The notes beneath the pieces are model-generated. The model was given only the letters and a program-made list of their open reading frames with translations, searched no databases and had not been told where the DNA came from. From Nemertoderma westbladi (taxonomy: Eukaryota; Animalia; Xenacoelomorpha): a DNA stretch of 52,258 bases. The position numbers were made by a program, and so were the translations under genes. Each line of letters opens with the position of its first letter. The first letter of the stretch is position 1. The stretch spans positions 1-52,258 of the forward strand of contig JAUCBJ010007065.1 of assembly GCA_032718475.1 (NCBI GenBank), given 5' to 3'. This document shows, one piece after another, positions 5,217-42,851 of this stretch.

Positions 5217-6544
5217 GACTATGTATACCGTTGAATGTCTACTGCTGTATTACAGTCTGAGCAAGTCTAGTAACTCAGTATTAACTGCTAGCCTAGTAAT
5301 TAATTACCGGTACTGCTACTCAGTGTAGCGTGATATATATAATATATTAGAATACCGGTATGCTTTGCTTATAGTATATATAACTATTATTACAGACTAG
5401 GTTTATCACAGAATACCGGTATAATTTTAGCACAAATATATATAAATATATAATAGGCCTATCGGAATACCGGTATACAGCTTACAGTTTGTAGTATATA
5501 TAATTCTGGACTAGAATTAATTACAAGTACCGGTATAATTTCAGCCTAAATTTATAGAAATAAAGATAATAGGCCTATCGTAAATACCGGTATATCAATT
5601 ATTTTAAATAATTGAATTTCTGAATTTTAGGGTTACTTGGTTACTTTACTTACTTTATTACCGTTGTTTGAGCAGTAATCCAACTGATATTGAGACCTAA
5701 TGGTTGTATGGTAGGCCTACGATTTATAAATCGTTAGATTTGATTTATAATATATATATACCCGTTTTAATGGGTTTTTTCAATGTTTGAAATAAATGTT
5801 ATTATTTCTGGGGTAATCACTACACAAAGCGGTGCGCTTTTAGTGAAGTGTTACGTATAGGACACTAAAACAAATAATACTAATTTACCTAAGTTACTTA
5901 ATACTACAAATTACGTACAATTCGGGTGAGATTACAATCTCTAAATAAACACAAAAATTTACAAAAACACAAATACGAATTTTTAGGGTAATTTTACAAG
6001 AAGTCTACAAACCAGCCTAACAAAGGGTTAGATAACCGGTTATTACAACGGACAGGGTACTACGGTATTTGAAATAATAAGTAGTAGTAAATACACTGCG
6101 TTGTCTAGATAGGAAAATACCACCGCCTGACGACCTATAGCCGTATCGCTATAGGTTCTACGTTATGTATCACGGAGTGTTCCTACCTAGAAGTTAATAG
6201 AGCTAATCGAATGTGCCTATCAACCACTTTACAACACAGATATAATGTCTACAATAATTACTTCGGAAAGTACTGTACACTAAACCCTAAATTAGGTACG
6301 AGTACTTATATAACAGATAATCAGTAGTTAAATATACTTGAACAGCTAAAAGAACCACGGCATCTGCTGGAGTGACCGATGCACAAAATCACCAGTCTTT
6401 ACCTACGCCGAGCAGCCCGTGTAGTACCGGAGTTAATTTAACTATAGCGGTATGTATAACAAACACAATTACTGTAGGAACAAACTTGGGGAATGAATGT
6501 TGCGGATAATCGCATAAACTCTGAATAATAAATATTACGCTACG

Positions 6545-7105
6545 CGTACAAACTACTCAAACAAAATACAGACCGAACACTGACAGACTACTATCAAGCC
6601 TAAACAAACTACGGTATATGCAGACTCCGAAATGATTAGGGAGTATGCGCTCTAACCCAGTAGTGCGACTTATTCTTTAGTTGGGGGTTTACCTTACAGC
6701 GTTCACTGCCCCTACTGCCTAACCGTACTTAATCGGACAGATGATCTACACACGCGGCAATCCGTTCAGACCTAATAACAGCCAGACAACTATCCAGCCT
6801 ACGAATTATCTAAATAAAATTATACGCTACCCGTACAGACTTACACAAACAAAGTACAGACCAAACGATGGCAGACTACTCTCAAGCCTAAATAAACTAC
6901 AGGACATGCAGACTCCGAAATGATTAGGGAGTATGCGCTCTAACCCAGTAGTGCGACTTATTCTTTAGTTGGGGGTTTACCTTACAGCGTTCGCTGCCCC
7001 TACTTCCTAATCGTACTTAATCGGACAGTTGATCTACACACACTGCAATCCGTTCGGACTTAACAGCAATCAGACAACAGCTCAGCCTACAAATTGTCTG
7101 TACAA
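6545..7105 (-). repeat. ~288-bp tandem duplication in the family A leader (also ~11975-12530 in A2 and ~14870-15430 in A3)
   Basis: GACTCCGAAATGATTAGG at 6623 and 6911, with near-identical sequence following each. Confidence 0.9.
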
Positions 7106-7367: not shown

Positions 7368-7379
7368 TATATCCTTTAA
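7368..7379 (-). promoter_or_regulatory. Non-tRNA primer-binding-site position of A1 (TTAAAGGATATA)
   Basis: Immediately follows the LTR end ..GCGCGAACA on the minus strand; perfect reverse complement of LTR site 8121-8132; no TGG. Confidence 0.75.
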
Positions 7380-8597
7380 TGTTCGCGCTTTCAGACCTTT
7401 GGCAGTTTAACCCGCCAAATTAAGATGTCTTCTAGATATTAAATCGCCTTTTAGCCTATGACAAGTATTTGATTAACTACACTAGTCGAAACCAATCTGT
7501 GCGCGACCATTCACCCGCTGGATATTCCCGGGAGATTGGGTTCGACGGTTTAATTTTATTGCTATGTAAGCTTAATGTATTATTCGACTGACAGTACTAT
7601 ATAATCTCTGACAATATTATTCACCTTCGGTAATATTAACAGTTCCTTTAGGATGTGGCGCTTTATCTATATAAACAGAGTTATGACTTAAACTACTCAC
7701 AACGATATGGCTTAATTATAATTCACATATATGGCGCATTCTTTAGGAATTGCTTCTTTAACAGACTCACTCATACACAATGCTGCACAATACTGCACAC
7801 TAATCTGCCAATCTTCACGGATTTTAGTCACATATAAAAGGAACACAGACTGACTCATGTAGGGTCTATCAAATAACATTAGATTCACTTCAAACCACTT
7901 TAACATAAGTCACAATCGTTTATCTGTAACCCTTCTCTCTTACCTTCGGTATATCAAGAATATTGGGTTTCGGGGTTATTTATCGTTATTCCAAATATAA
8001 TTATTCATCCACCATATTATGAAGAACTGACGGTAAATAGCAGTATAAAACAACAATGAAAACACTGATTGTTATGAGTTTGCAATGTTTCAGCAGTCAG
8101 CATGTATGATCAGTCAGCAGTTAAAGGATATATGTCCTTGTAATTAAACCTACTAGTGTAAGACTAAAAACAGTAAAGCACAAAATACTTCCAAGCCGTT
8201 CTTTCTTTGGCTCAGGACTGAATGTAAACACTGCACATAGGCATTGCGTCATTTCTCGGAAATTTTCTGTACAAGGAGCCACAAAAACGCTCTAATTGGC
8301 TGACTGAACTGAGAGACGCCGTAGAACAAAGGAAATCAACACGTATGAATGTCAGCTGTTAACCGTAGTCATAGTAACTACTGTTCAAGAGTAGCTATCA
8401 CCCCTTTGCGTCACGAATTGCCATAGAATCATAAAATATGCCTTTCACAGTACACATACGGAGGAAATAGGTCTTAGATCCTCTAAAAACACCGATACAG
8501 CAATAATACGGTCTCTTACACTTATTAAATCAACTACAGAGTATTTTAATGTAAAAGATAATAAAAATAACGGGGCAATTCAGCAAAGTCTTTTACA
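7380..8597 (-). repeat. 5' LTR of A1 (1218 bp, TGTAAAAG...GCGCGAACA)
   Basis: TG..CA termini; homologous along its length to the A2 and A3 LTRs; carries the uninterrupted CATTAGATTCACTTCA site that is split in A2. Confidence 0.92.
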
Positions 8598-10636
8598 CAG
8601 GTTGACACATTGTTACCGAGGGTGGTGGTATACCTCTTTGTGTATTTACTAATTTATCGCGTTCTAGCGCGATACTTTGCTGCACTTCTTGCAACTCAAG
8701 CCTACTTTCCCTTACTGTGCCCTTGAATTGCTGAACCGTCTCCTGCATCTGCCCGAGCAGGAGATCCATCCCCCGCCGTCTCTCGTCCACCCATTCGACC
8801 GCCGAAGCGGGAGTCGCCAACGTTGTAGCGGGCGGACGAGGGACAACGGGCGACAAATCAGGAATATTTCGCTCGGGGTCCAGGACCTGAACTGTCTCCT
8901 GGGCAGTTCTACTGGGCACAGGTAGCTTAGTGCTATGCAGAGGGAATTTAGAGGTAGCTTCAGGGAGCACAGGTGTGTCTATCACCGAAGGGGTGATTTC
9001 AAAAACAGGCCTAATTATTTCAGGCTCATCTACTATAGTAGGGAGTCTTTCTATTTTAATTATTTGGTCTGTGGGCTCTGTACTACCTAAGTTGGTGTTA
9101 TTTAGTTGCCTTCTAACAGCTGGAGGCAAATCAGGCAATTTCTGACGGTGGAATGTTCTTTTACGTCTGCTTAGACGAGATCTATTTCCTTTGCCTTCAG
9201 TATCGGTAGTATCGCCTTCCTCAGATGATGTATATCCCTGTCTTTTGGGAGTAGATCGATTCATCATCTGCATATTGCTAGCTGTTAACTGTTTATTTAT
9301 GCAGTCTTGATTCTCCTGAATGTTTTCCAATTCTAACTGGGTGATTTCTTCAGTCGCTCTCCGTTCTGCTTCTGCCACTGCCTCTGCCGCCTTTCTTTCA
9401 GCCGCTGCTTCTGCCGCTGCCGCTTTTCTTTCTGCTTCTGCAGCTACCACTGCTGCTTTCTTTCTGTCTTCTATACGTTTTTTCTTTACTTGTTCTTCTT
9501 GGACTCTTGTCAGGCGGAGTTGTTCATCAAATTTAGCCTGATTCGCAGCCCTCATTTCCACATCGATGGCATCCAACACAAGCTGAGTTCCTTCGCTATT
9601 AGGGCTAAGTCCATCTAACCTTCTCCTCAACTCGTCATCACCTAAAAAAACGTTGATAGTCTGACAGATAGATGTCAATGGCATCCCTCTTATGCGGCTT
9701 CTCTGCCGTCGCCTCACTTTCCACTTGGGAAAAAGTAGCGTCTGTTGATTCTCCATGGGTTGAGCGCTCCTCCAGCTGAGCTTTCCACTGAGCTGTTCCT
9801 TGAACTTGGCGACTCACCCGTTGAAACCAAGTCTTTACGGCAACTTGCAACGACGTGTCTTGTCTTCTTTTAGAAGCCTCCTCAAAGGCTGATAAGATTA
9901 GCCTGATTCGTAGAATTCTTTCTCTAACTTGATAAAGCAGCTGTCCCTGCTCTTGAGGTCCTTGAGGTTGTTGTAACAGTTGTTTTTCTACTCGCTCCAT
10001 AGAGCTGAAGAATCCCTGTGCGTATCCGGCTGCGGACCTCTTCCACACAGCTGGATCGATGGTTTCCTTGGCTACTCCCATCCGGTGTATGTCTTCCCAG
10101 GCAGCTTCTGATAAATCAAACGGGAGTCCGGGTCCGGGGAAGTTCCATTGCGACTCGACCATGGACTTCAGTTCTTCCCTTGTGTATCCAGCATAACTAT
10201 CTCTAGTTGAACGCTGGCTTCTCGCCCAATCGATCTGGTGTTCTTCCACAGCGATCAATAACCTAGTGAGTACGGCTGCAGGAAGGATGAGAAGGGGATC
10301 TGAATAAGCCTCATCCGTCATCCTTGCTCCGCGTTCGGGTGTCAGTTCTACCGTATCTTCACTACTGGAGCTGTCGGGCCGCTGAGAAATAAGTTCTTGG
10401 CTCGCGGGTTGTTGCTGTTCCGCTGCTTCTTGGTTCTGCTTGACCTGAGCTCGAGTGCCTATGATAGACCTACGATGTTGGACCAGCCTAGGTTCTTTTA
10501 TTACTACTGGAGGGATGACCTTCCTCACAGTGGGAGGTGAACTGAACTTACGACCAGACGGTTCTACACCTCTATCTGAGTCGCAGATAGTTACATCTAA
10601 TAAACTGTCTGACAAGTTCTGCTTAGTATCAGACAT
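8598..10636 (-). pseudogene. A2 gag N-terminal half, frameshifted and cut by the A1 insertion
   Basis: ORFs 9638-10636 and 8593-9756 are consecutive pieces of the A1 protein. One extra base at CCTAAAAAAACG (~9644-9650) versus CCTACAAAACG in A1. Ends at ..VTMCQP where the A1 LTR begins. Confidence 0.9.
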
Positions 10637-12881
10637 GTTTGTTTACACAGTTGAATGTCTACTGCTTATTACAGTCTAAGCAAGTCTAGTAATTCAGTAT
10701 TAACTGCTAGCCTAGTAATTAATTACCGATACTGCTACTCAGTGTAGCGTGATATATATAATATATTAGAATACCGGTATGCTTATAGTATATATAACTA
10801 TATAAGTATTATTACAGACTAGGTTTATCACAGAATACCGGTATAATTTTAGCACAAATATATATAAATATATAATAGGCCTATCGGGAATACCGGTATA
10901 CAGCTTACAGTTTGTAGTATATATAATTCTGGACTAGAATTAATTACAAGTACCGGTATAATTTCAGCCTAAATTTATAGAAATAAAGATAATAGGCCTA
11001 TCGTAAATACCGGTATATCAATTATTTTAAATAATTGAATTTCTGAATTTTAGGGTTACTTGGTTACTTTACTTACTTTATTACCGTTATTTGAGCAGTA
11101 GTCCAACTGATATTGAGACCTAATTGTTGTATGGCAGGCCTACTATTTATAAATCGTTTGAGTTGATTTATAATATATATATACCCGTTTTAATGGGTTT
11201 TGTCAATGTTTGAAATAAATGTTATTATTTCTGGGGAGTAATCACTACACAAAGCGGTGCGCTTTCAGTGAAGTGTTACTTATAGGACACTAAAACAAAT
11301 AATGCTAATTTACCTAAGTTACTTAATACTACAAATTACGTACAATTCGGGTGAGATTACAATCTCTAAATAAACACAAAAATTTACAAAAAACACAAAA
11401 TACAAATTTTCAGGGTAATTTTACAAGAAGTCTACAAACCAGCCTAACAAAGGGTTAGAAATCTGGTTATTACAACGGACAGGGTACTGCGGTATTTGAA
11501 AATAATACGTAGTAGTAAATACACTGCGTTGTCCAGATAGGAAAATACCACCGCCTGACGACCTATAGCCGTATCGCTCTAGGTACTACGTTATGTATCA
11601 CGGAGTGTTCCTACCTAGAAGTTAATAGAGCTAATCGAACGTGCCTATCAACCACTTTACAACACAAATATAATGTCTACACTAATTACTTTCGGAAAGC
11701 ACTGTACACTAAACCCTAAATTAGGTACGAGTACTTGTACAACATATAATCAGTAGTTAAATATACTTGAACAGCTAAAAGAACCACGGCATCTGCTGGA
11801 GTGACCGGTGCACAAAATCACCAGTCTTTACCTACGCCAAGCAGCCCGTGTAGTACCGGGGTTAATTTAACTATAGCGGTATGTATAACAAACACAATTA
11901 TTGTAGGAACAAACTTGGGGAATGAATGTTGCGAATAATCGCATAAACTCTGAATAATAAATATTACGCTACGCGTACAAACCACTCAAACAAAATGCAG
12001 ACCAAATACTGACAGACTACCATCAAGCCTAAACAAACTACGGTATATGCAGACTCCGAAATGATTAGGTAGTATGCGTTCTAACCCAGTAGTACGACTT
12101 ATTCTTTAGTTGGGGGTTTACCTTACAGCAATGGCTGCCCCTACTTCCTAACCGTTCTTTATCGGACAGATGCTTTACACACACCGAAATCCGTTCAGAC
12201 CTAATAACAGCCAGACAACTATCCAGCCTACAAATTATCTAAATAAATATTATACGCTACCTGTACAGACTACACAAACAAAGTACAGACTAAACGATGG
12301 CAGACTACTCTCAAGCCTAAATAAACTACAGGACATGCAGACTCCGAAATGATTAGGTAGTATGCGTTCTAACCCAGTAGTACGACTTATTCTTTAGTTG
12401 GGGGTTTACCTTACAGCAATGGCTGCCCCTACTTCCTAACCGTTCTTTATCGGACAGGTGATCTACACACACTGCAATCCGTTCAGACTTAACAGCAATC
12501 AGACAACAGCTCAGCCTACAACTTGTCTGTACAATATGATCAGGCTTACACGCCTTCTGTTCAATACTGGCCTACAAACAAATAAAACTGACAGAAATAA
12601 GTAAGCTCCAAAAGAAACAAGGGGTGTACAGTCCCTAATCTCTTAAACAGCCTACCGGTATACAACAATCAAATCGAATAATACTAATGTACTTATACGG
12701 GAAGTACCGGTTAGGACAGTTAGGCCTACGGACCTACTGAAGTACCGGTTCTGGCAGTTGGACCTACGGGCCTACGGCAGTACCGGTTCTGGCAGTTGGG
12801 CCTACTGACCTACAGATGCACCGTTCAGGTTTACCGGTTGACCGGTACTTTCAACTTTATTGCTTACGGCAATAAAGAAGC

Positions 12882-12893
12882 TATATCCGTTAT
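12882..12893 (-). promoter_or_regulatory. Non-tRNA primer-binding-site position of A2 (ATAACGGATATA)
   Basis: Directly after the LTR end; perfect reverse complement of A2 LTR site 25297-25308. Confidence 0.75.
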
Positions 12894-13399
12894 TGTTCGC
12901 GCTTTCAGACCTTTGGCAGTTTAACCCGCCAAATTAGGATGTCTGTTAGATAATAAATCACTTTTAGCCTATGACAAGTATTTGATTCACTACACTAGTC
13001 GAAACCAATCTGTGCGCGATCATTCACCCGCTGGATATACCCGGGAGATTGGGTTCGACGGCTTAATCTTATTGCTAGGTAAGCCTAATGTATTATTCGA
13101 CTGACAGTATTATATAATCTCTGACAATATTATTCACCTTCGGGGAATATTAACAGTTCCTTTAGGACGTGGCGCTCTATCTATATAAACAGAGTTATGA
13201 CTTAAACTACTCACAACGATATGGCTTAGTTATAATTCACATATATGGCGCATTCTTTAGGAAATGCTTCGTTATCAGTCTCACTCATACACAATGCTGC
13301 ACAATACTGCACACTGATCTGCCGATCTTCACTGATTTTAGTCACATATAAAAGGAACACGGACCGACTCATGTAGGGTCTATCAAATAACATTAGATT
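12894..13399 (-). repeat. A2 5' LTR, downstream (U5-side) part
   Basis: Matches A1 LTR 7380-7885; ends at AGATT (13395-13399) where A3 starts. Confidence 0.9.
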
Positions 13400-14570
13400 T
13401 GTAAAAGCTTTTGCGTCATTAACCGGTTATTTTCCCTTAAAGTACTCTGTAGTTGGTTTGCCAGGCATAAAAAGGCCGTGTCCTTGCTGTACTGGTGTTT
13501 TAGAGGACATAAAAGTCATTTCTTCTGTATTTGTACTGTATTTGTACTTTAGAGGACATAATCCGCAATCTTGTGACGCGATAAGCTAGATACTCTTGAA
13601 AACAGTGTCGCTACCATGACGACGGCTAGCAGCTGATATTGCCACGTCGACGTTTCTTTGTTTCTTTGTTCTCTCGTTGTTCGGTTGACCAATCAGAGCG
13701 TTTTTTGTCTCTGTGTTGGAGGTGTATACAGAACTCAGTAGTTCAGTGTTATGTTTTTGCCCAGAGCCTAAGAACCGGCTTTTGGCACCTCCGTGTTTCA
13801 GTCTTTAGTCTTACATTAGTAGGCTTAATTATAGAACGTATATCTGTTATCTGATTCACTACTTACCTACCGAGTTACCTTATCAATGCAATTTATACCT
13901 TAACTTTACTGCTTTTGCTGTTGATTATTCGTTATATTTGTTGATGAATTATTATATCGGAATACTGATCAATAGCCCGACATCCCAATCTTCTTGATAT
14001 ACTAAAGGTTAGAGAGACCGGTTACAGATAAACGATTGCGACCTATGTATGTTAAGTGGTTTGAAGTGAATCTAATGCTATTTCATATGCCCAACATAAA
14101 TTGTCTGTTGCTCTCTTTATACGTGACCAAATTTAGTGAAGGTCGGCAGATTAGTGTGCAGTATTGTGCAGCATTGGGTATGAGTGTAACTGATAACAAA
14201 GCATCTCCTAAAGAATGCGCCATATACGTAAATCTATAGCCTTTTCGTTGTGTCTAGTTTAAGTCATAACTCTGTTTACATATTTAGAGCGCCACGTCCT
14301 AAAGGAACTGTTAATATTTCCCGAAAGTGAATAATATTTGTCAGAGATTATATATTACGATCAGTCGAATAATACAGTAGGCTTACACCATCAATCATTA
14401 AGCTCCGAACTCAGTCTCCCGGGTATATCCAATGGGTTAATGATTGCGCATAGACTGGCTTCGGCTAATGTAGTGTATCAAATACTCGTCATAGGCTAAA
14501 GACTATCTATCATCCAAAAGACATTCTAATTTTGGCAGGTTAAACTGTCAAAGGTCTGAAAGCGCAAACA
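13400..14570 (+). repeat. 5' LTR of A3 (1171 bp, TGTAAAAG...CGCAAACA)
   Basis: Direct repeat of 23913-25048; differs by a 35-bp indel and about four substitutions seen by eye. Confidence 0.96.
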
Positions 14571-14581
14571 ATAACAGATAT
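14571..14581 (+). promoter_or_regulatory. Non-tRNA primer-binding-site position of A3 (ATAACAGATAT)
   Basis: The LTR end is fixed independently by the LTR pair and TSD. The next 11 nt are the reverse complement of ATATCTGTTAT at 13840-13850 (24318-24328 in the 3' LTR). Confidence 0.8.
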
Positions 14582-16663
14582 TGCTTCTGGATTGCGGTGT
14601 AAGCAATCAAGTCTAAAGTACCGGTACCGGTTGAACGGTAACCTGTACTGCTGTAGACCTGTAGGCCTGACTGCCTGATCACCCGAACCGGTACTTACAG
14701 TACAGGTACAGCAGTATTATTCGATTTTTATAATTATATACCGGTAGGCCTTAATAATTAATCAGGGACGGCCGCCCTGGTTTTTTATTGAGATTTTACT
14801 TGTTTCTGTCAAGTTTTATTTATTTGTAGGCCAGTATTGAACAGAAGGCGTGTAAGCCTGATCATATTGTACAGACAATTTGTAGGCTGGGCTGTTGTCT
14901 GATTGCTGTTAAGTTTGAACGGATTGCAGTGTGTGTAGATCACCTGTCCGATAAAGAATGGTTAGGAAGTAGGGGCAGCCATTACTATAAGGTAAACCCC
15001 CATCTAAAGAATAAGTCGTACTACTGGGTTAGAACGCATACTACCTAATCATTTCGGAGTCTGCATGTCCTGTAGTTTATTTAGGCTTGAGAGTAGTCTG
15101 CCATCGTTTAGTCTGTACTTTGTTTGTGTAAGTCTGTACGGGTAGCGTATAATATTTATTTAGATAATTTGTAGGCTGGATAGTTGTCTGGCTGTTATTA
15201 GGTCTAAACGGATTGCAGTGTGTGTAGAGCCTCTGTCCGATAAAGAACGGTTAGGAAGTAGGGGCAGCCAATGCTGTAAGGTAAACCCCCAACTAAAGAA
15301 TAAGTCGTACTACTGGGTTAGAACGCATACTACCTAATCATTTCGGAGTCTGCATGTCCTGTAGTTTATTTAGGCTTGATAGTAGTCTGTCAGTATTTGG
15401 TCTGCATTTTGTTTGAGTGGTTTGTACGCGTAGCGTAATATTTATTATTCAGAGTTTATGCGATTATTCGCAACATTCATTCCCCAAGTTTGTTCCTACA
15501 ATAATTGTGTTTGTTATACATACCGCTATAGTTAAATTAACCCCGGTACTACACGGGCTGATTGGCGTAGGTAAAGACTGGTGATTTTGTGCACCGGTCA
15601 CTCCAGCAGATGCCGTGGTTCTTTTGGCTGTTCAAGTATATTTAACTACTGATTATATGTTGTACAAGTACTCGTACCTAATTTAGGGTGTAGTGTACAG
15701 TGCTTTCCGAAAGTAATTAGTGTAGGCATTATATTTGTGTTGTAAAGTGGTTGATAGGCACGTTCGATTAGCTCTATTAACTTCTAGGTAGGAACACTCC
15801 GTGATACATAACGTAGTACCTATAGCGATACGGCTATAGGTCGTCAGGCGGTGGTATTTTCTTATCTGGACAACGCAGTGTATTTACTACTACTTATTAT
15901 TTCAAATACCGTGTTTGTGTTTATTTAGAGATTGTAATCTCAACCCGAATTGTACGTAATTTGTAGTATTAAGTAACTTAGGTAAATTAGAATTATTTGT
16001 TTTAGTGTCCTATACGTAACACTTCACTGAAAGCGCACCGCTTTGTGTAGTGATTACCCCCAGAAATAATAACATTTATTTCAAACATTGACAAAACCCA
16101 TTAAAACGGGTATATATAAATTATAAATCAAATCTAACGATTTATAAATAGTAGGCCTACCATACAACCATTAGGTCTCAATATCAGTTGGACTACTGCT
16201 CAAATAACGGTAATAAAGTAAGTTAAAGTAACCAAGTAACCCTTAAAATTCAGAAATTCAATTATTCTAAAATAATTGACATACCGGTATTTACAATAGG
16301 CTTATTATATTTATTTCTATAAATTTTAGGTTGAAATCATACCGGTATTCTGTAATTAATTCTAGTCTGTAATTATACTTATATATATACACTATAAGTG
16401 TAAACTGCATACCGGTATTCACGATAGGCCTATTATATATTTATATATATTTGTGCTAAAATTACCTACCGGTATTCTGTGATAAACTAGTCTGTAATAA
16501 TACTTATATATACTATAAGCATACCGGTATACTAATATATTATATATCGTGCTACACTGAGTAGCAGTATCGGTAATTAATTACTAGGCTAGCAGTTAAC
16601 ACTGAATTACTAGACTTGCTTAGACTGTAATATAGCAGTAGGCATTCAACTGTGTAAACGAAC

Positions 16664-19600
16664 ATGTCTGACGCAAAGCAGAACCTGTCAGACAGTCTAC
16701 TAGATACAACCGAGAGCGAAGTGACAGCAGAGAAACCGCATAAGAGGGATGCTATTGACATCTATCTGTCAGACTATCAACGCTTTGTAGGAGATGAAGA
16801 GTTGAGGAGAAGGCTGGAGGGGCTTAGCCCTAATAGTGAAGGAACCAAGCTTGTGCTGGACGCAATCGATGCGGAAATGTTAGCTGCGAACCAAGCTAAA
16901 TTTGATGAACTCCTCCGCATCACTAGAGTCCAAGAAGAGCAAGTAAAGAAAAAACGTATAGAAGACAGAAAGAAAATAGCAGCGGCCTTGGCAGATGCAG
17001 TGGCAGAAGCAGAAAGAAAAGCGGCACTGGCAACAGCAGAGGCAGTGGCAGAAGCAGAACGGAGGGCATCTGAAGAGGCAACCCAACTAGAGTTGGAAAA
17101 TCTTCAAGAGAGGCAAGACAACTTCAATAAACAGTTAACAGCTAGTAATATGCAGATGATGAGTCGATCTACTCCCAAAAGACAGGGGTATACATCATCT
17201 GAGGAAGGCGATACTACCGATACTGAAGGCAAAGGAAATAGATCTCGTCTAAGCAGACGTAAAAGAACATTCCACCGTCAGAAATTGCCTGATTTGCCTC
17301 CAGCTGTTAGAAGGCAACTAAATAACACCAACTTAGGTAGTACAGAACCCACAGACCAAATAATTAAAATAGAAAGACTCCCTACTATAGTAGATGAGCC
17401 TGAAATAATTAGGCCTGTTCTTGAAATCACCCCTTCGGTGATAGATACACCTGTGCTCCCTGAAGCTACCTCTAAATTCCCTCTGCATAGCACTAAGCTA
17501 CCTGTGCCCAGTAGAACTGCCCAGGAGACAGTTCAGGTCCTGGACCCCGAGCGAAATATTCATGATTTGTCGCCCATTGTCCCTCGTCCGCCCGCTACAA
17601 CGTTGGCGACTCCCGCTTCGGCGGTCGAATGGGTGGACGAGAGACGGCGGGGGATGGATCTCCTGCTCGGACAGATGCAGGAGACTGTTCAACAATTCAA
17701 AGGCACAGTAAGGGAAAGTAGGCTAGAGTTGCAAGAAGTGCAGCAAAGTATCGCGCTAGAACGCGATAAATTAGTAAATGCACAAAAGGGTATACCACCA
17801 CCCTCTGTAACAATGTGTCAACCTGTTAGGTCTGAAGTATCGCATGCGCAAGGTGTGGAGCCTACACGCATCTATACTGCTAGCGAAGTAGAAACTCCTA
17901 TAGTGAACCCTATTAAGGGTAATTATAGACCTGTTGATAATGATATTCCATATAGAACGGATCATAATCCGAGAAATTTATATACCGATAACTCGATATT
18001 AAATAACACGATGGCCCAAGAAAGTTTTACGCGTCAAATGGCTAGAACCGAAGCCCGGCAAGCTGTAAAGGTGGGAGAGATCGTCAAGTTCAATGGAGAT
18101 GAGATGAAATGGTTACCTTTTAATGAATATTACAAAGATAACATACAGAACTCTGTGCTATCTAATGGAGAGAAACTTAGATTCCTCATCGAGTGCTTGG
18201 AAGGATCTCCCAAGTTAATGGCGTTATAGTTTATTGGACATCCAGACGGATTAAGACAAGTTTGGGATACACTTAACATCAGGTATGGTAATAGGAATAA
18301 CATAGCTGGGTATTTGTATGCAAAGTTGGTAGCGCCCCGAAAGTTTATTAGCAGCGGAATTATAGAGTTTTCCGATGAGATTCAGGAGATCTGCAGACAA
18401 TTAGATTGGCTAGGTAAGTCTCATGAGTATCAGAACGCTATGGTTATTAGAGCAGTGGCTTCTACTTTACCGAAGGGTGGAGTAGGTACACGCTGGGATA
18501 AGAAAGTGTTATATATGATGGAACAACAACGACGAGACCCTACCATGGCTGATCTCATGTCATTCCTAGATGGAGAAGTGAAATTACAGCTCCTAAGGCA
18601 GTCCAGAGAGAAGACATTGGAAAACAAGGTAAGTGAGAAACCCGTTTCTAGGAGAAGGGTAACACCAGTGTGTTATACAGACGACGGCGAAAGCCAGACT
18701 TCTCAAGGAGAGGATAGCGGGAAAGACACTAAAAGATCTTATTATGGCAATAAAGCGCCTATAGAACAGGTAAGTAAATTCAAGTCTCGACCCAATGACA
18801 GAAGAGAACCGGTAAGAAAAACCCCTCCTACGTCTCCCAAGAGAATTCAGGTGAGAAAGCCCGAGGAAAGAACGAACGTGCACCACACAGCACAGGTTAA
18901 AGTAAGTAACATCAAACCCAAATGTGTGCTGTGCGACGGGCCCCACCGCTTGAATATGTGCGATGAATTCTTAAAGAAATCATTAAAAGAGAGACGGGAA
19001 GTCATGTGGGATAAGCGGTTGTGTTATAATTGTCTCAGACGAGGACACCAACGGCGAACCTGTTACTCCGACGCAAGGTGTGCAAAGTGCGGTGCGAAAC
19101 ATCATATCTTGTTGCACACTGAATTCGAGCGAAATAGTCCGAGTCAGGTGAGTGATTCCGAACTACATGTCCAATTCAGTGATGTGAACGACACTGATCA
19201 ATCTGAGATGGAAGGATTCTATACGGACGAATTCTCCGACCAAAACGAATCCTGTTACTTAATAAACACCACCACAGTGTATCGAGCACTCATGTATGAG
19301 AAAGACACAGACAGCGACCTCACCCTAACTACTTCAGATCAACAACAATCTTGGAAAGCGCCAACTTACAATATAGGAATCCGAGAATTTCCTGTAGTAC
19401 AGTTACGGGTCCACGGACCTCAGAAGAGCTATATAGTGAACGCCCTCCTGGACTCCGGTAGCACAGGAACATTCATCGATAAAGAACTAGCCGAAGTCAT
19501 CTTTGCTGGACAACCCAAGTTCCGAACCAAGCTAAACATGTCAGGGATCATGCAGGTTTGGAATTCTACTGTAGCTGCCGACTATTATATAGGTGAGTTG

Positions 19601-20662
19601 TCCACTCCACAGGATAAACTAGGAGAACACAGTATAAGGTCAGTCAAAATGGTGGCAATAAAGAACTTCGCTACCACCCAAGTGGAACCTTATAATTGGG
19701 ACGAAGATGATCATGTCCAACAACTTAACATCCCTAGATTCGACATCGATTATCCTGGAGTACAAATATTAATCGGTCAAAACGCGCATGAGGCGCTGGA
19801 GACATTAGAGAAACGACCTACTCAACCGCAACCACTTCAGACCTATGCGGTAAGAACTAGAGTAGGTTGGTACCTTACTGGACCTTCCCGAAGAACGCTC
19901 AGAGAAAGACTGCTTCAAGATCACGTCTGCCAGGTGAGTGAATGGGAAGATGATACTAGTGAGGGAGACGACCCAACTGAGGGAACACCATACTCCTCAG
20001 ATAATGACGATATTAGCTCCAATGTAGATCAATGGAGATATTGCCCCAAGAAGTTTAATCCAACTGACATCGCTTCCAGAGGAGCAACTCCTCAAGAACT
20101 GACAGATACTACAGACCGGTTAGGTGAACCCGACTTCCTGAGTAAGGAGGATGAATGGCCTCCCCATCTCACTCCGACTGAGATTAGACCAGCTAAGGGA
20201 GCGGAGAAAGTCAAACCTAAAACCCGGACGGGTGGATCGGAGTTATTTGAACCCGGGATAGATCTGTCGGTATTACATATTGCCAGGGACGACGCCGTGG
20301 ATCTGGACCTCCCCACCGCGAGTGGATCCTTCATGAAGATCAGAGAGAGCGATTGGAGCTCTGGAACATCAGATGTCTCGCAGGGACTTTCACCTCTCCT
20401 GCAGGGAGCGACGGACCACTATAGCTCCTGGAATCGGCTTTGTAAGGCCGTCGTGTACCTAAAGCAATGTTTCTATCGTCACTATTCCAGGACGAAGAGG
20501 AAACCTGGAATTGTATTCGGGATGCAGCGACTCAATCACCCAGTCGGTCGTTTGTGTTTACCGGAAGGGAATGGAGGACTCTCCGGAAACTGTGGAAGGC
20601 AAGATTCTCTTCCCACGACCACCTCCCTAATCCTTCAAACATCTAGGGACTCCATAACGTAA
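16664..20662 (+). pseudogene. A3 Gag-protease ORF with an in-frame N-terminal deletion and one premature stop
   Basis: ORFs 16664-18229 and 18314-20662 share a frame; TAG at 18227 corresponds to AAG (K) in A1. About 290 aa missing after MSDAKQNLSDSLLD. Intact triple knuckle and ALLDSGS; same C-terminus as A1. Confidence 0.92.
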
Positions 20663-21210
20663 CAACATATGGAGTGGGTGTGTGACTCTATTATTTTGTA
20701 TTTGTTTTATTTTTATATTTATGTATGTATTATTATGTAATTTTATTTTAATCGTTTTATTTAATTTTATTTAGTAGTATGGTATTTTAGAGATTATTTA
20801 GTAGATTAGTGCAATATATATTCGCGTTTATTATTTAATTACGTATATTATATATTTAGTGCGACGGCGAGAAATAATTCTTTTTCTCTTTCCTTACTGC
20901 CCGTATCATATTATAAATACGTGACTACAGTAAGATGAAATATCCGTACTTATTAAAGTACAATAAAGCTCCTACTATATTTAAGTATTATTGGTAGGCA
21001 GAGTATTAGGAATGCAAAGTTCAGATCCTCGTGTCTCGGCTAAACCAAGCTCTGGGTAGACCTTGGAAACGACTTGCCTCTTCTCACTGACATTGCTTCG
21101 TGCGATATTGCTCTCATACCGTATATTAAATAATACATATAGTAGCGTGATGTCCCTTTAACAGTAGCGTATAACGCAAAATAATTCTGTTAAACCCTTT
21201 GACCATCTGC

Positions 21211-21485
21211 AATTCTAGTCGATTAAGATATCGCGGCACCCACCGATATACTTGAAAGACAAAATTCTAGAATCAGTGGTTAACGTCCCCAGACAAGTTC
21301 TGGAATAAACTGGTGCCCATCCTAAATATTAATTATTAATATTTACAAAAATCTGTCAAATATCAGATCCTTTAAAATTCTAGTCGATTAAGATATCGCA
21401 GCACTTACCGATACTCTTAAAAGGACAAAATTCCTAGAATCAAGGATCCCAGTCCCCAGACACGTTCTGGAATAAAATTGTGTCT
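21211..21485 (+). repeat. Duplicated ~110-bp self-complementary element in the A3 3' region (period 165)
   Basis: AATTCTAGTCGATTAAGATATCGC..CTAGAATCA..GTCCCCAGACA.GTTCTGGAATAAA starts at 21211 and 21376. Confidence 0.8.
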
Positions 21486-22284
21486 ATTTAACATTAAATA
21501 ATAAAATTTACGGGAATAAATTTAAATTCATACTTTAAATGAATTTAATAAATTGTCATTTTGTACAATTTATAACATTCCCAAAATTCCATTAATTAAT
21601 AGATCATGGGAGCGGAGATTCACTATATTAAGTGTATTTGTGTGTGAGAATCTCCAATGTATAGTCAATAGCCGATAAAATTCATAAATTCATATATAGA
21701 GAGGATATTGACAATTAAAGAATTACTATTAAATAGCATCCCAGATCTGTATGCATGAGAATTACCCTAATTCTACCGCTAGCTTTCCATAATGTCACCA
21801 TGGCAACAACCACGCTAGAATTAGAAGTGAGTTAAAAGAACAATAAAAGGCTTGCGTATTGAATAGCATCCGGAATAAATAGCACACCGCTAGTATCCAA
21901 GGATACATAATAACAACGTGACATTCTGGAAGGCACTTGACTAACGGACAAATGACCCGAATGTGTGATAGAATGTGTACAATTTGTGACAGTTACGTGG
22001 AATTTGTGCGTTTGTAGGTGAATGTTACTACTAAGGTGTGTTTACAGTAGCGAGTCGCAATTGTGAAAGTAACCCTAACTCTCCAGTAAGAACCTGAAGT
22101 ATATCTAAGCCTTTGGGACGGACGGTGGAGTGGCTCGTGCTGGTTGTTGTAGTCGTTGTGCAGCTACGACGTTGGCGATAGGCACATCGGCGAAAGTACA
22201 CCAGCGCTGAGGATCTCACACTGTCCGGGGGCAGAGAGGGGTAGGCAGCGACGCCCGCTCGCCTAAATATAAACTCATTATAAT

Positions 22285-23760
22285 ATGGATAAACTTATAT
22301 AGCAGATATGATTGAGTTGATAGAAGATGATCTTGGTATCAGGGAGCGATATGCTCTACCTTTACAAGCGTTTGTTGATAGCCTGATACGCGGCGACGCT
22401 GGTCCAACTACTACGGAGGACGATGGTCGTTATATCTAACCGCCAATGTCCCGGGAGCAACTTGCGCATGGGTTAGACTGTAGAAAATTCATCGCTCGCT
22501 ATACGCATCGTAATGGTACGTATATGGACTTCTTAACTACTGGTCATCCTATCGACATCCTACACGATACGAACGATATAGACACCAAAGGGAAATGGTT
22601 TATTTAAATATCATACCCAGCGGAAGCGGAACGATAAACTGAGACTCGAACACGAAAATTCTATTCGAAACCGACTCGAAAGTGCAGATGTCGAAATGCC
22701 GGATAAACGCAGCGACTCCACCAAATACCTGGAATTTTTGAGAGAAACCTATCTCGATATTACCAGTCAACAGAATCTAGAAACTCGATATCCTCAAGGT
22801 ATACATCATGACCGCATGGTAGAACTCAAACGGCTCTATTCCACTATGATGTATCTTACCGCCGATCGATCGCTACCTGTTGTACCGGATAGCTTCGAAC
22901 GGATGGAGGAATATTCTAAGCTGGAGAAAGATCACTCGCGTTTCCCCTACAAGACGTGCGTTTTTGGTATTATTGCGATGAATGCCCAAGACCCAACCAA
23001 CAAACGGAAAGACATAAACATCCGCGGAGACGTTGCTTTAAACACGGTTTTACTCGCTATACTTACGGGAGTTTCGAGCGAAACTTGTTCGATGTATCAC
23101 CTACGATCGTTCGACTCAGACGATCCTTAAATAAACCAATGATCAGAGTTTCGGAATGCTCGATCAGAACTCCTCATTCCCTAGTGAGACTTCAGACTCT
23201 TGATCCTATTAGTATGACGGATCCTCCCGAGCTGTACTCACTGTTCAAAGATCTAGTGTTACCTGAACAATTAGTCGGTGGCACCCGGTTGTGGGCTTCC
23301 TAGATATTAGCCCATCCTACCTAGCCGGATTGGGACGCGGACATTTAATATCGCCGTTTAACCCTTACCATCGTCCCGGCTTAACACGATATAACCTGTC
23401 ACCAAAGTGGCGGAGAACGTTGTACCAAACGAGTTAAACGCTATTCTACAAAGATCAGAAAGGAAACCTGCGTTTGTTCAGATAAACGTAAGTTGTAACA
23501 GCAAGTCCAAGCTAGCGATAAACGAATTGTCTTTATCTCAGTTCGATTGTGAAATCCAGAATCTCTAAGAAGATATCGAACTTAGACAACCCCATTCTCT
23601 GCGAGAGTTTTTGGATGAACGTATCCAGCTACGAGCGGAGGAAAATCAGCTCGAGGAGAAGCATATCGAAACGGCGGATACCCCGACCATAATCCTACAC
23701 CTTCTGATGCAATTATATTGCACCCTTCACCCAGGATTTATAACCCTCCTAGTAAAGTGG
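22285..23760 (+). pseudogene. Decayed additional ORF of unknown family just before the 3' LTR of A3
   Basis: Coding-like, more GC-rich stretch giving consecutive protein-like fragments (MIELIEDDLGIRERYALPLQAF.., ORFs 22696-23130, 22956-23303, 23611-) broken by stops and frameshifts; no family recognised. Confidence 0.5.
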
Positions 23761-23904
23761 CTCGCCCCAAAGAGAAAAGGACTCTTGCTAGCCTCAAAAA
23801 ACTGCGTAAACGCCGTCTGCGTAAGAAAGACTAACTGTTTAGAGTATCTTTATGTTTTAGAAACTGTGATTTGTTATATTTTATAGACTTAAATCCCATT
23901 TTCT

Positions 23905-23912
23905 GGGAGCGG
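23905..23912 (+). promoter_or_regulatory. Short polypurine tract of A3 (GGGAGCGG)
   Basis: Directly upstream of the 3' LTR TGT; partly within a TCCCA/TGGGA hairpin. Confidence 0.65.
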
Positions 23913-25048
23913 TGTAAAAGCTTTTGCGTCATTAACCGGTTATTTTCCCTTAAAGTACTCTGTAGTTGGTTTGCCAGGCATAAAAAGGCCGTGTCCTTGC
24001 TGTACTGGTGTTTTAGAGGACATAAAAGTCATTTCTTCTGTATTTGTACTGTATTTGTACTTTAGAGGACATAATCCGCAATCTCGTGACGCGATAAGCT
24101 AGATACTCTTGAAAACAGTGTCGCTACCATGACGACGGCTAGCAGCTGATATTGCCACGTCGACGTTTCTTTGTTTCTTTGTTCTCTCGTTGTTCGGTTG
24201 ACCAATCAGAGCTCAGTAGTTCAGTGTTATGTTTTTGCCCAGAGCCTAAGAACCGGCTTTTGGCACCTCCGTGTTTCAGTCTTTAGTCTTACATTAGTAG
24301 GCTTAATTATAGAACGTATATCTGTTATCTGATTCACTACTTACCTACCGAGTTACCTTATCAATGCAATTTATACCTTAACTTTACTGCTTTTGCTGTT
24401 GATTATTCGTTATATTTGTTGATGAATTATTATATCGGAATACTGATCAATAGCCCGACATCCCAATCTTCTTGATATACTAAAGGTTAGAGAGACCGGT
24501 TACAGATAAACGATTGCGACCTATGTATGTTAAGTGGTTTGAAGTGAATCTAATGCTATTTCATATGCCCAACATAAATTGTCTGTTGCTCTCTTTATAC
24601 GTGACCAAATTTAGTGAAGGTCGGCAGATTAGTGTGCAGTATTGTGCAGCATTGGGTATGAGTGTAACTGATAACAAAGCATCTCCTAAAGAATGCGCCA
24701 TATACGTAAATCTATAGCCTTTTCGTTGTGTCTAGTTTAAGCCATAACTCTGTTTACATATTTAGAGCGCCACGTCCTAAAGGAACTGTTAATATTTCCC
24801 GAAAGTGAATAATATTTGTCAGAGATTATATATTACGATCAGTCGAATAATACAGTAGGCTTACACCATCAATCATTAAGCTCCGAACTCAGTCTCCCGG
24901 GTATATCCAACGGGTGAATGATTGCGCATAGACTGGCTTCGGCTAATGTAGTGTATCAAATACTCGTCATAGGCTAAAGACTATCTATCATCCAAAAGAC
25001 ATTCTAATTTTGGCAGGTTAAACTGTCAAAGGTCTGAAAGCGCAAACA
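23913..25048 (+). repeat. 3' LTR of A3 (1136 bp)
   Basis: Direct repeat of 13400-14570, followed by TSD AGATT. Confidence 0.96.
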
Positions 25049-25771
25049 AGATTCACTTCAAACCACTTTAACATAAGTCACAATCGTTATATGTAACCTT
25101 TCTCTCTTACCTTCGGTATATCAAGAATATTGGGTTTCGGGGTTATTTATCGTTATTCCAAATATAATAATTCATCAACCATATTATGAAGGACCGACAG
25201 TAAATAGCAGTATAACAATATAATAGTATGCACAGTGTTACACAGTATGCAGTGTCAGGTTTGGTTTGAGACAATCAGGTTTGTTATGATTTGCAGATAA
25301 CGGATATATGTCCTTATAATTAAGCCTACTAGTGTTAGGCTAAAACAGAAAAGCACAAAATATTCCCAAGCCGCTCTCTCCTGGCTCAGGACAGAATGTA
25401 AACACTGCACATAAAGCATTGCGTGATTTCTAGGTAATTTCTGTACAAGAGCCATAAAAATGCTCTGATTGGCTGACTGAACTGAGAGACGCCGTAGAAC
25501 AAAGAAAATCAACACGTATGAATATCAGCTGTTAACCGTAGTCATAGTAACTACTGTTCAAGAGTAGCTATCACCTTTTGCGTCACGGAATTGCCATAGA
25601 ATCATCAACTATGCCTTTTACAGTACACATACGGAGGAAATAGGTCTTAGATCCTCTAAAAAACACCGATACAGCAATAATACAGTCTCTTACACCTATT
25701 AAATCAACTACAGAGTATTTTAATGTAAAAGATAATAAAAATAACGGGGCAATTCAGCAAAGGCTTTTACA
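25049..25771 (-). repeat. A2 5' LTR, upstream (U3-side) part
   Basis: Matches A1 LTR 7881-8597; terminus ..CTTTTACA at 25771. Confidence 0.9.
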
Positions 25772-27648: not shown

Positions 27649-28084
27649 TGAGGGCTGCTTGATTGACACACGGCTCAGTGGGAATCTAGACTTTGAAGTG
27701 CAGCGCCTTTGGTAGAACTCAATGGCAGGATTTATAAGCCTGGTTCATTTCAATATTTGATCAAAGTTTGATCAATGTTTGATCAAAGGAATGCTTTTTG
27801 AGAGCGGGACTGTAATAACACCCATTGTTAAGTTAACATAGTGCTAATCATATGAAAAGTCGTCAATATAGTTTGTGAGGTGTTGCGAAACGTCAATAAC
27901 AACCGTTGGCTATGGTTACCTGAAATATTCAAAATTTTGGTATTTAGTTAAGTTTTAGTTGAATTTTCAACTATTATTTAACTAAACACCTCAAAATTAG
28001 TTAAAATAATTAGTTAACTTGTCATTTATATAAATTTATTTGGGTTTAGTTAATTTGTCACTACAAACTTCGTTGAACTGCACT

Positions 28085-28306
28085 GAACACAGCAATGTTG
28101 AACACAGCATTGTTGAAAACAGCAATGTTGAACACAGCAATGTTGAACACAGCAATGTTGAACACAGCAATGTTGAACACAGCAATGTTGAACACAGCAA
28201 TGTTGAACACAGCAATGTTTTACACAGCATTGTTGAACACATCATTGTTGAACACAGCAATGTTGAACACAGCATTGTTGAACACAGCAATGTTGAACAC
28301 AGCAAT
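28085..28306. repeat. 15-bp minisatellite (GAACACAGCAATGTT, ~15 units)
   Basis: Head-to-tail units with no spacers. Confidence 0.95.
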
Positions 28307-32300: not shown

Positions 32301-33171
32301 TCACCCGCACAAATCGAACTGGCACCGGGAATATTGGATCAATCATTGGTGAGTATTCGCAGCGAAATTGGCGAGGTAAGTATAGTGACGTCAGAAATTG
32401 CTCGGCAGCAACAACAGTACTACAGACAACAACGAGAAATTGAGGAACAAACTCAACTGCTGACGGTACAAGCGGCAGTAGAGGAAGAGAAACTACGCGT
32501 CGCAAATTTTGCGAGAATCTCTCATCTACAAGAAGCAGCCGAATTAGAAGCAGCTGAGATGGAAAGGTTGGAGCTAGAAATAGCACAACGAACAGCGGCA
32601 GCTGAGTTAGCGCAACGAGCAGCAACAGCTGAGTTAGAACGACAAGCTGAGTTAGTGCGACGGACGGCTGAGTTGGAGCAACAAGCGGCGACAGCCGAAT
32701 TGGACGAACAAAGGCGAGTTTCGGAAGCGAGAGCCGAGTTGAAAAAACAACAGATAAAGGCTCAATCAGCTATATGACTAGCGGAGTTCGAGGCACAACA
32801 ACAACAGACGGAACAATGCGAGAAAGAAGTTAAACTTCATTTCGAACTCGAAAGGAAGGCGAGGGAATTAGCCAACGCCAAGGAAGATCTGCAGTAGTAG
32901 TGGTATATCTCCTATACATGATGCGACGGAACACAGGTATGTTATTCCGGACAAGTTTGTACCGCCAAGAGCAACGTCATCGCCTATTCCGAAAGTCAAG
33001 GTAAGTAACCCGCCGATTACAGATCGTAGTAGTTTATTAGTCGGACCTACATTAATGACGACTAAACAGGTGAGTCAACCGTCGACACCAAAACCGGTCA
33101 CGCACAACGTAAACCCAACTGTGTTTAGACCTACGAGAACTTTGGACTCAAACGCCATTAAACGACCACGG

Positions 33172-33495
33172 ATTCAGTTTACATCGCAATCTACAACTTC
33201 GAGGAAGACTTGTGAGCCTACCGAGCAATGGAGACCAGTAGACACGCGACCGTTTAATCAGTTTACATCGTAATCTACAACTTCGAGGAAGACTTGTGAG
33301 CCTACCGAGCAACGGAGACCAGTAGACACGCGACCGTTTAATCAGTTTACATCGCAATCTACAACTTCGAGGAAGACTTGTGAGCCTACTGAACAACGGA
33401 GACCAGTGGATACGCGACCGTTTAATCAGTTTACATCGCAATCTACGACTTCGAGGAAGACTTGTGAGCCTACCGAACAGCGGAGACTAGTGGAC
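33172..33495 (+). repeat. 84-bp tandem repeat (~4 units) in element B gag
   Basis: GGAAGACTTGTGAGCCTA at 33203, 33287, 33371 and 33455; unit encodes QFTSQSTTSRKTCEPTEQRRPVDTRPFN. Confidence 0.92.
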
Positions 33496-36981: not shown

Positions 36982-37003
36982 ACGTGGGGGTGGTGACATT
37001 GAC

Positions 37004-42362: not shown

Positions 42363-42614
42363 ATAAAGTATTATATTTAAAAGGACTAATTATTCCGAAC
42401 TCGCACGAACTCACAAGTGGGGAAGGAAAGAGTGGACGGAAGACTCGTGAGCCTTTCTTATGTATTGTTTATCTTATGTATTGTTTACGTAATTTGTTAT
42501 TGCTCCAAGTTTATGTATTTGTATTGTTCCGATTTTATGAAATTCAGAAAGTTTTATATTTAGAAGGAATTTATATTTGAAAGATTTATATTTTATATTT
42601 GAGATGCTAAAAGA

Positions 42615-42851
42615 GTTTATATTGTTCTAAACTTATGCAGTTTATATTGTTCTAAACTTATGCAGTTTATATTGTTCTAAACTTATGCAGTTTATATTGT
42701 TCTAAACTTATGCAGTTTATATTGTTCTAAACTTATGCAGTTTATATTGTTCTAAACTTATGCAGTTTATATTGCTCTAAACTTATGCAGTTTATATTGT
42801 TCTAAACGTATGCAGTTTATATTGTTCTAAACTTATGCAGTTTATATTGTT
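42615..42851 (+). repeat. 25-bp minisatellite (ATTGTTCTAAACTTATGCAGTTTAT, ~9 units) in the element B 3' region
   Basis: Exact period of 25 from 42621; degenerate units on both sides (~42390-43105). Confidence 0.95.

Follow-up and report, generated by a model that had tools for sequence, protein, structure and literature searches.

The window analysed here, a 52,258-nucleotide stretch of Nemertoderma westbladi DNA (contig JAUCBJ010007065.1 of assembly GCA_032718475.1), contains three copies of an LTR element, family A, of which A3 is inserted within the 5′ LTR of A2. A3 is complete and lies on the forward strand, with a 5′ LTR of 1171 nt at 13400-14570 and a 3′ LTR at 23913-25048 (99.6% identical over aligned columns), flanked by the target duplication AGATT at 13395-13399 and 25049-25053. 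The bases before its 3′ LTR are purine-rich, and A3, on which the family was judged, thus shows the TG...CA LTRs, purine tract and short target duplication of BEL/Pao elements. It should be noted that the LTR end of A3 is fixed independently of any pairing, because it follows from the two LTRs and the AGATT duplication. A1 and A2 lie on the reverse strand; the window contains only their 5′ LTRs, and we placed the ends of these by homology to A3. The A1 5′ LTR (1218 nt, TG...CA) occupies 7380-8597, while that of A2 is separated by the A3 insertion into an upstream part at 25054-25771 and a downstream part at 12894-13399. The A2 leader and gag (8598-12881) are truncated at the start of the A1 LTR.

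The family was initially assigned to BEL/Pao, and this holds on the strength of its DUF1759 Gag and protease. A1 carries an uninterrupted ORF of 1684 aa (195-5249, reverse strand) encoding a Gag with DUF1759 (Pfam, E 2e-11) and zinc knuckles, a protease and a short RNase H-end remnant, the last being the sole part of family A that matches a BEL/Pao Pol. The A3 Gag-protease ORF (16658-20662, forward strand) has a single stop at 18227-18229 and likewise lacks reverse transcriptase (RT) and integrase; the absence of both from family A was missing from the preliminary description. DUF1759 was present in 18 of 18 Gag-protease matches. No relative of more than 39% identity was found among the proteins of length 920-2928 searched. 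Viral contigs contained no relative. Pfam detected no chromodomain, the domains found being those of BEL/Pao.

As the preliminary description had reported, no TGG follows the 5′ LTR of A1, A2 or A3, and the bases that do follow pair perfectly with a site in the same LTR, over 12, 12 and 11 nt, respectively; all six sequences lie where it had placed them. In A1, the PBS TTAAAGGATATA (7368-7379, reverse strand) adjoins the LTR end and is complementary to the LTR site TATATCCTTTAA (8121-8132, reverse strand), likely the 3′ segment of the primer. The corresponding PBS and site of A2 are ATAACGGATATA (12882-12893) and TATATCCGTTAT (25297-25308), both on the reverse strand, and those of A3 are ATAACAGATAT (14571-14581) and ATATCTGTTAT (13840-13850), both on the forward strand, with a second copy of the site in the 3′ LTR at 24318-24328. 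The distance from site to PBS is about 730 nt, and the three LTR sites occupy homologous alignment columns. Family A thus has a PBS complementary to 11 nt of its own 5′ LTR, as do elements of the Tf1/Sushi type. Within the window, each 11-mer occurs at its PBS and LTR site(s) and nowhere else, and the longest perfect complement in a sister copy's LTR is just 5-7 nt, compared to 11-12 nt in the copy's own LTR. Shuffling the post-LTR sequence of A1 and A3 gave a match as long as that observed in 2 of 300 and 0 of 300 trials, respectively.

The copies had been said to differ at PBS positions 1, 5 and 6, with every change mirrored in the LTR site. Indeed, these three changes are mirrored, but position 12 (T in A3) differs too and is not, and for this reason the co-varying core is 11 nt, position 12 being excluded. 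The CTG after the LTR site and the small extension helix were also both present; in A3 the latter would be formed past an internal loop by AGAA at 13833-13836 and TTCT at 14585-14588 (forward strand). Although the LTRs of A1 and A2 share 90-95% identity, 2 of the 12 site positions differ between them. Both differences are transversions, each mirrored in the PBS, and since these offer no G-U intermediate, they appear to favour templating over two-step selection. Co-variation in family A is known from these three copies only. The family is very abundant in contigs of sequencing runs, but when contigs of four runs were compared with 13330-14860, the PBS and site positions were absent among the 40 matches listed of 250, and these contigs are too short to phase a site with its PBS.

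Folding of the whole site-to-PBS stretch of A3 gave the site-PBS helix a probability of 0.00-0.01. In A1, the helix reached 0.75-0.84 only with an RNA start no more than 8 nt from the site, compared to 0.05-0.09 with a start 40-200 nt upstream. The predicted pairing energy of the A3 site was similar with the post-LTR bases of A2 and with its own (-16.4 vs. -15.6 kcal/mol, respectively). A hairpin is predicted just 3′ of the A3 PBS (14590-14608, forward strand; z -0.9 to -1.9, weak alone); it is common to A1-A3, with one pair compensated. All three copies also conserve a second 11-nt complement, between U5 and the leader. Neither a conserved TATA nor AATAAA was found in family A, and in the window there is no tRNA gene, nor does any Rfam family, ribozymes included, reach the gathering threshold.

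Two neighbouring families lie on the forward strand of the same window. Family B has a candidate LTR at 29444-30771 (putative ends) containing a candidate site, CACATTCCTAC, at 29744-29754, and a candidate PBS, GTAGGAATGTG, at 30772-30782, after ...CCAACA and before a hairpin with a z of -3.8. This 11-nt match was equalled by 11 of 200 shuffles. Its gag-pol (31569-40075), interrupted by stops and frameshifts, encodes DUF1759, Peptidase_A17 and DUF5641; the order is PR-RT-RH-IN and the RT groups with BEL/Pao, while the Gag-protease is 22% identical to that of family A. In a quick RT tree built without named references, family B grouped with non-insect rows, the only exceptions being five insect proteins; clades named in PMC6238403 include the Sailor lineage (Sinbad, Sparrow, Surcouf) and the Suzu clade. 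In family C, a weak candidate site, CACGTATTAC, at 44258-44267 faces a weak candidate PBS, GTAATACGTG, at 45324-45333 beside a putative LTR end; 71 of 200 shuffles equal this 10-nt match and it was not counted as evidence. Pairing across a splice junction was rejected for the window's own families, the candidates being 8-10 nt long, with non-consensus donors, and shorter than the contiguous match.

Distant BEL/Pao relatives were fished with the family B RT as bait, giving a resolved set of 14 relatives from 12 families with a resolved LTR end. In 13 of these, the PBS pairs over 10-15 nt only across a predicted GT...AG junction within the LTR (contiguous match 5-7 nt); the fourteenth, L078, has a contiguous 10-nt site, as in family A. 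The search required only a GT donor, and 11 of the 13 donors nonetheless read GTAAG, a motif that occurs 1-3 times among the 26-64 GTs of each LTR. At each locus, 0-2 of 150 shuffled PBSs paired over as many nucleotides as the real one, and the flank after the 3′ LTR, used as a control, gave 0-9 nt and never GTAAG (13 of 13). A blind scan recovered junction pairing in 15 of 32 further loci and no match in 17, while the controls gave none among 32 reverse complements and one among 96 block shuffles; 34 loci with too little upstream DNA were left out. Three relatives, L037, L054 and L059, were kept out of the resolved set because their repeat edge is not at CA/TA. L037 was regained by the blind scan and L054 by eye; L059 was recovered in neither way. 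No TGG lies within 8 nt of the LTR end in 13 of the 14 resolved relatives, the exception being L079, with TGG one base past the LTR and the weakest donor.

The predicted LTR introns of the relatives measure 66-574 nt, and the loci with junction pairing are scattered across the non-insect side of the quick tree, where family B is also found. Family A is tied to the spliced relatives by 22-23% Gag-protease identity, on long branches. In the spliced relatives, the counterpart of the PBS would arise only once the LTR RNA is spliced, and this is much stronger support for the original reading of LTR RNA as the primer than the preliminary description had. TATA-like motifs precede the donor by 140-142 nt in two of 11 relatives and by 36 nt in one, and are absent from eight. 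In view of this mixed spacing, the RNA start predicted earlier at 13833-13840 may be too Tf1-like. In 9 of 11 relatives, poly(A) hexamers follow the primer site, as required for strand transfer.

The best explanation, to which we give a probability of about 0.83, is that family A primes its minus-strand DNA with its own LTR RNA, in the manner of Tf1, instead of with a tRNA. Weighing against it are the low helix probabilities in the long-range folds, the equally good pairing of the A3 site with A2, the small number of co-varying copies, the missing TATA and AATAAA motifs of family A, the TGG and weak donor of L079, L059 and the 17 blind-scan loci without a match, and the distant link between family A and the spliced relatives. 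We infer the start site, splicing, cleavage and priming as follows. Transcription would begin in the 5′ LTR, at the site or upstream of it, and the LTR site would anneal to the PBS, which lies some 730 nt further downstream, a pairing seen in the sequence and for which folding is predicted. By analogy with Tf1, the RNA would then be cut directly 3′ of the site, before the CTG, freeing a 3′-OH; the RNase H responsible would probably come with the RT of a helper element. RT would copy back just to the cut and jump to the 3′ LTR. Plus-strand synthesis would quite probably copy the attached primer, rewriting the PBS from the LTR site in every cycle. For the majority of relatives, removal of an intron from the 5′ LTR RNA would put the primer together. 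Such an intron would be heritable, because copying would halt before reaching it, leaving that part to be templated by the 3′ LTR in its unspliced form. The odds are slightly better than even that family A is the form remaining after loss of the LTR intron. More broadly, we lean towards a scenario in which a large, mostly non-insect BEL/Pao branch gave up tRNA: the spliceosome would join the primer from two LTR exons, the PBS would record the joined RNA in DNA form, and the intron would have been lost repeatedly, as seen in family A, L078 and perhaps B and C, with primer and PBS thereafter drifting together in each copy.

An LTR-derived primer could also act in trans, as a short separate transcript, for example a small RNA or one terminated by a solo or 5′ LTR's poly(A) signal, rather than as the 5′ end of the template. 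The abundance of family A, the combination of start region, intron and poly(A) signal in the LTRs of relatives and the unfavoured long-range helix in A3 would all suit such a primer. However, every PBS matches its own LTR and not that of a sister, whereas a shared primer pool would often write sister sequence into the PBS; we consider this explanation unlikely. Slightly less likely still is a structural helix under selection for packaging, dimer formation or translation control, in which case priming would rely on another molecule, for instance a fragment from inside a tRNA. The second U5-to-leader complement of A1-A3 shows that such helices occur, and half-tRNA primers are described in Copia (PMC6317226). 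Against this, the pairing always begins 0-5 nt past the LTR end, and the PBS differs between copies and families and tracks the LTR even over a splice junction. The LTR end is set by the position of the primer. A DNA-level inverted duplication without a priming role (template switch, gene conversion or assembly artefact) might be suspected from the inverted family A copies that adjoin in the nest, but is largely refuted and very improbable: three different sequences share one homologous place, and the complement in relatives is split by the introns and therefore absent as DNA. Mature tRNAs end in CCA. Least probable of all is conventional priming from the 3′ terminus of a host tRNA, which the ICTV profile describes for Belpaoviridae (PMC8742986) and for which the TGG at offset 1 in L079 might speak, but TGG is missing after A1-A3 and within 8 nt of 13 of the 14 resolved ends, and for family A this mode is refuted unless the LTR end is misplaced, since the two LTRs of A3 and the duplication fix that end.

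Should family A and its relatives indeed prime from their own LTR RNA, a third superfamily would join those in which self-priming is known or predicted. BEL/Pao is one of three LTR superfamilies in animals. A primer made by splicing would couple element replication to host splicing, and the elements would lack a tRNA-type PBS, presumably the target of tRNA fragments. Self-priming would also explain why annotation seeking a tRNA PBS comes up empty; tRNA priming of BEL/Pao is assumed rather than shown (PMC8742986). Family A provides a cheap test case, being abundant and having a site that is both contiguous and variable.

In the literature, we found self-priming for Gypsy and Copia only. Cer7 of Caenorhabditis elegans, a BEL/Pao element, bears its own tRNA-like primer as a gene inside the element. 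Like family A, it would supply its own primer. In the window, by contrast, no tRNA gene was found, and it is the LTR that contains the primer site. According to the ICTV profile of Belpaoviridae, the PBS spans 18 nt and pairs with the 3′ end of either tRNA-Arg or tRNA-Gly (PMC8742986). Family A shares with this family (Semotivirus) the DUF1759 Gag, protease, RNase H remnant, TG...CA LTRs and 5-bp target duplication, and family B shares Peptidase_A17 and DUF5641. In contrast to the profile, family A and most of the relatives examined lack an 18-nt tRNA PBS, and family A also lacks the RT and integrase of BEL/Pao.

For the TAR lineage of plant Ty1/Copia (Houba, Osr-1), PMC6317226 reports predicted self-priming with a 5′ LTR complement of at least 10 nt. 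As described there, this lineage resembles our elements in taking the mechanism beyond Gypsy, but belongs to another superfamily and kingdom and has contiguous sites only. Tf1/Tf2 of Schizosaccharomyces pombe, Tj1, and the Tf1/Sushi and Tcn1 chromoviruses (Ty3/Gypsy) are described as self-primed, with no tRNA (PMC7175516, PMC4600332, PMC6317226). They are primed by the opening 11 nt of their RNA. In family A, some 730 nt separate the site from the PBS, and the primer may be the 3′-terminal part of a longer fragment from the RNA 5′ end; that of the relatives would be built by splicing, for which we found no description in Tf1-like elements. As in the Tf1 group described in these sources, the PBS beside the 5′ LTR of family A is complementary to 11 nt of LTR RNA from the element itself. 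Family A probably works like Tf1 but, with proteins of BEL/Pao rather than chromovirus type, is no member of the Ty3/Gypsy chromoviruses.

The three copies of BEL/Pao family A in the window (A1, A2 and A3) each carry, within their own LTR, a perfect complement of the bases that directly follow the terminal CA of the 5′ LTR (the PBS). This complement, or site, is 12 nt long in A1 (site 8121-8132, PBS 7368-7379, minus strand) and A2 (25297-25308 and 12882-12893, minus strand) and 11 nt in A3 (13840-13850 and 14571-14581, plus strand); all six stretches lie where the preliminary description had placed them, and the three sites occupy homologous columns. Matched to the LTRs of the other copies, the same post-LTR bases gave a perfect complement of just 5-7 nt. 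Shuffled post-LTR sequences equalled the observed length in 2 of 300 trials for A1 and in 0 of 300 for A3. A3 is a complete insertion (13400-25048) within the 5′ LTR of A2, with LTRs that agree at 99.6% of aligned columns and with AGATT flanking both ends, so that its LTR end could be set without recourse to the pairing. Only the 5′ LTR is visible in A1 and A2, whose LTR ends were placed by homology. The proposal that PBS variation is mirrored in the LTR site held at positions 1, 5 and 6 and failed at position 12, where A3 differs with no matching change; the co-varying core is therefore 11 nt. Although the A1 and A2 LTRs are 90-95% identical, they differ by two mirrored transversions within this core, the co-variation being seen in three copies, a small number.

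The family A ORF carries the BEL/Pao Gag domain DUF1759 and a protease motif. Compared with the Pol of family B, one of two other BEL/Pao families in the window, it matched at the protease end and the RNase H end, 135 nt apart, with no match to RT or integrase. Lacking both, family A is by its coding content a non-autonomous element. It is highly abundant and variable in contigs of four public runs, which are too short for joining site to PBS. In A1 (195-5249, minus strand), a Gag-protease frame of 1684 aa that includes a long alanine-rich repeat is still open, again with neither RT nor integrase; such a frame in a very abundant element suggests that family A produces its own particles with borrowed Pol. 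About 288 nt are tandemly duplicated in the 2-kb leader of all three copies (14873-15446, 6520-7099 and 11949-12528).

In family B, the CA at 30771 is followed by 11 nt pairing with 29744-29754 and then by a hairpin; 11 of 200 shuffles equalled this match at some CA. The match in family C is 10 nt, equalled by 71 of 200 shuffles. Because each family has a single LTR in the window, B is a suggestive candidate for self-priming and the C pairing was discounted as evidence. Downstream of the family B pol lie extra ORFs of 150 and 329 aa (40787-42095, plus strand), the latter without a Pfam match, and directly past the family C gag-protease ORF is an integrase (rve) fragment of another element, probably Gypsy-type (50950-52014, minus strand). 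At least six LTR insertions are nested in the window, which also has tandem arrays at 28084-28306 (15 nt), 33163-33495 (84 nt), 42564-42900 (25 nt) and 47635-47860 (33 nt); the 84-nt and 33-nt arrays fall in the gag regions of families B and C.

Relatives were found with the family B RT as query (45-52% identity to the top matches), taking the best 80 of 521 confirmed loci. These are for the most part short contigs, in which repeats may have been collapsed. In 17 loci we inspected where the repeat shared by the two LTR copies stops; it does so at CA or TA in 14, which form a resolved set of 12 families in the RT tree. In one of these, L041, the 3′ LTR stops at the contig end and the LTR end was borrowed from a near-copy, L052. 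TGG was absent within 8 nt after the LTR in 13 of the 14, the exception being L079 (TGG at offset 1). In a long-branch relative (L059:7600-8500), neither test settled the LTR end or primer site.

Contiguous complements in the resolved loci were just 5-7 nt, except in L078 (10 nt), and these short matches start immediately past a pyrimidine tract and AG. When one GT...AG gap was allowed, a complement of 10-15 nt appeared in 13 of the 14 loci, composed of 4-9 nt before the donor and 3-7 nt after the acceptor and beginning 0-4 nt past the LTR end. The donor was GTAAG in 11 of these 13, in a search demanding just GT. With shuffled PBS sequences, 0-2 of 150 trials per locus gave a match as long as the real one; the flank after the 3′ LTR yielded 0-9 nt (13/13). 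The acceptor picked by the script in L053 is poor, a better one requiring one G-U pair. Cross-pairs between families reached at least 10 nt in 17 of 178 cases, several among families with a common primer sequence. A blind scan took in 32 further loci with sufficient upstream DNA and called a match only where consensus splice sites and ACA/ATA were present. Fifteen loci matched, nine of which do not closely duplicate a resolved family or L054; the controls gave matches in none of 32 reverse complements and in one of 96 block shuffles. L044, L054 and L076 fit the pattern by eye. From these sequences we infer an LTR intron in the relatives. The original observation was real, and the pattern is more general than the first three copies show, extending to relatives with a PBS match across a predicted splice junction. 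The PBS core opens with GT/AT in nearly all matching relatives (L007-L079), A2, A3, B and C, with A1 (TT) and L025 (AG) as exceptions, and the base after the predicted primer is usually C.

A tRNA end as source of the complement is ruled out by its variation between families and copies. A DNA-level repeat is likewise ruled out in the relatives, since the complement forms only once the predicted intron is removed. The minus-strand primer must sit where the complement falls, 0-5 nt after the LTR. Being neither DNA repeat nor tRNA end, and lying at the primer position, the complement points to the element's own LTR RNA as the likely primer, and we put the probability that family A self-primes reverse transcription in this way at about 0.83. 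By analogy with Tf1, cleavage of the LTR RNA would fall immediately 3′ of the site, and RT would extend back as far as this cut before transferring to the 3′ LTR. Nine of 11 relatives have poly(A) hexamers downstream of the site, 40-127 nt short of the LTR end. The LTR portion upstream of the cut, intron included, would be copied from the 3′ LTR, so that the intron would survive while that copy is unspliced; were it spliced a single time, the progeny would inherit the contiguous kind of site that family A and L078 have. Plus-strand synthesis would copy the attached primer and rewrite the PBS every cycle, which would explain mirrored transversions between close copies.

RNA folding tells against self-priming in part. 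Folded as contiguous RNA, A3 gave the site-PBS helix a probability of 0.00-0.01; the helix reached 0.75-0.84 in A1 only with a start at most 8 nt from the site, and 0.93 in B only with a start at the site. The PBS region of A2 is as good a partner for the A3 site as A3's own. The relatives show no uniform spacing of TATA-like motifs, and the RNA may start further upstream than in Tf1, as is hinted at by an extension helix and a hairpin upstream. U5 and leader share a second complement of 11 nt (14365-14375 with 14714-14724, plus strand), with the identical sequence at the corresponding positions of A1 and A2. Its helix would cross that of site and PBS; for the two to exist together, the RNA would have to adopt a pseudoknot or the primer would already have to be released by cleavage. 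Of the LTR stretches compared, the 100 nt following the site (13851-13950 and homologous stretches) diverge most, with 53-58% between copies versus 78-93% ahead of the LTR end. Contig depth is lowest there, and the sequence is C/A-rich, a bias also seen past the site in many relatives.

A quick RT tree scatters the predicted-spliced loci over its non-insect side, where B (on a long branch) and L078 also fall. A Gag-protease tree puts L078 together with L027 and L043, both spliced-match loci. Families A, B and C lie in the latter on long branches beside an insect row and have no assignable position, so that intron loss as the origin of the contiguous site in family A is a guess.

Cer7, a BEL/Pao element of Caenorhabditis elegans, has a tRNA-like primer of its own. 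Self-priming has been described in Tf1/Sushi and Tj1, and predictions of it exist for Tcn1 and the Copia lineage TAR (PMC6317226, PMC4600332, PMC7175516, PMC3601003, PMC5443660); in Tf1, the first 11 bases anneal to the PBS, with RNase H cleavage falling between bases 11 and 12 (PMC7175516). The ICTV profile gives BEL/Pao elements a tRNA-Arg or tRNA-Gly PBS and calls their replication poorly understood (PMC8742986). A word search of BEL/Pao or LTR surveys found tRNA and priming unmentioned (PMC3118150, PMC554778, PMC6238403, PMC8556966), and the PBS appears in general terms only in another (PMC8220671). Our search of openly available literature returned no report of BEL/Pao self-priming or a spliced primer; subscription papers, supplements or repeat-database entries may hold one. 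Family A is a BEL/Pao element, yet it departs from the tRNA PBS of the profiled members; though not a member of the Tf1 group, it would work like Tf1 self-priming.
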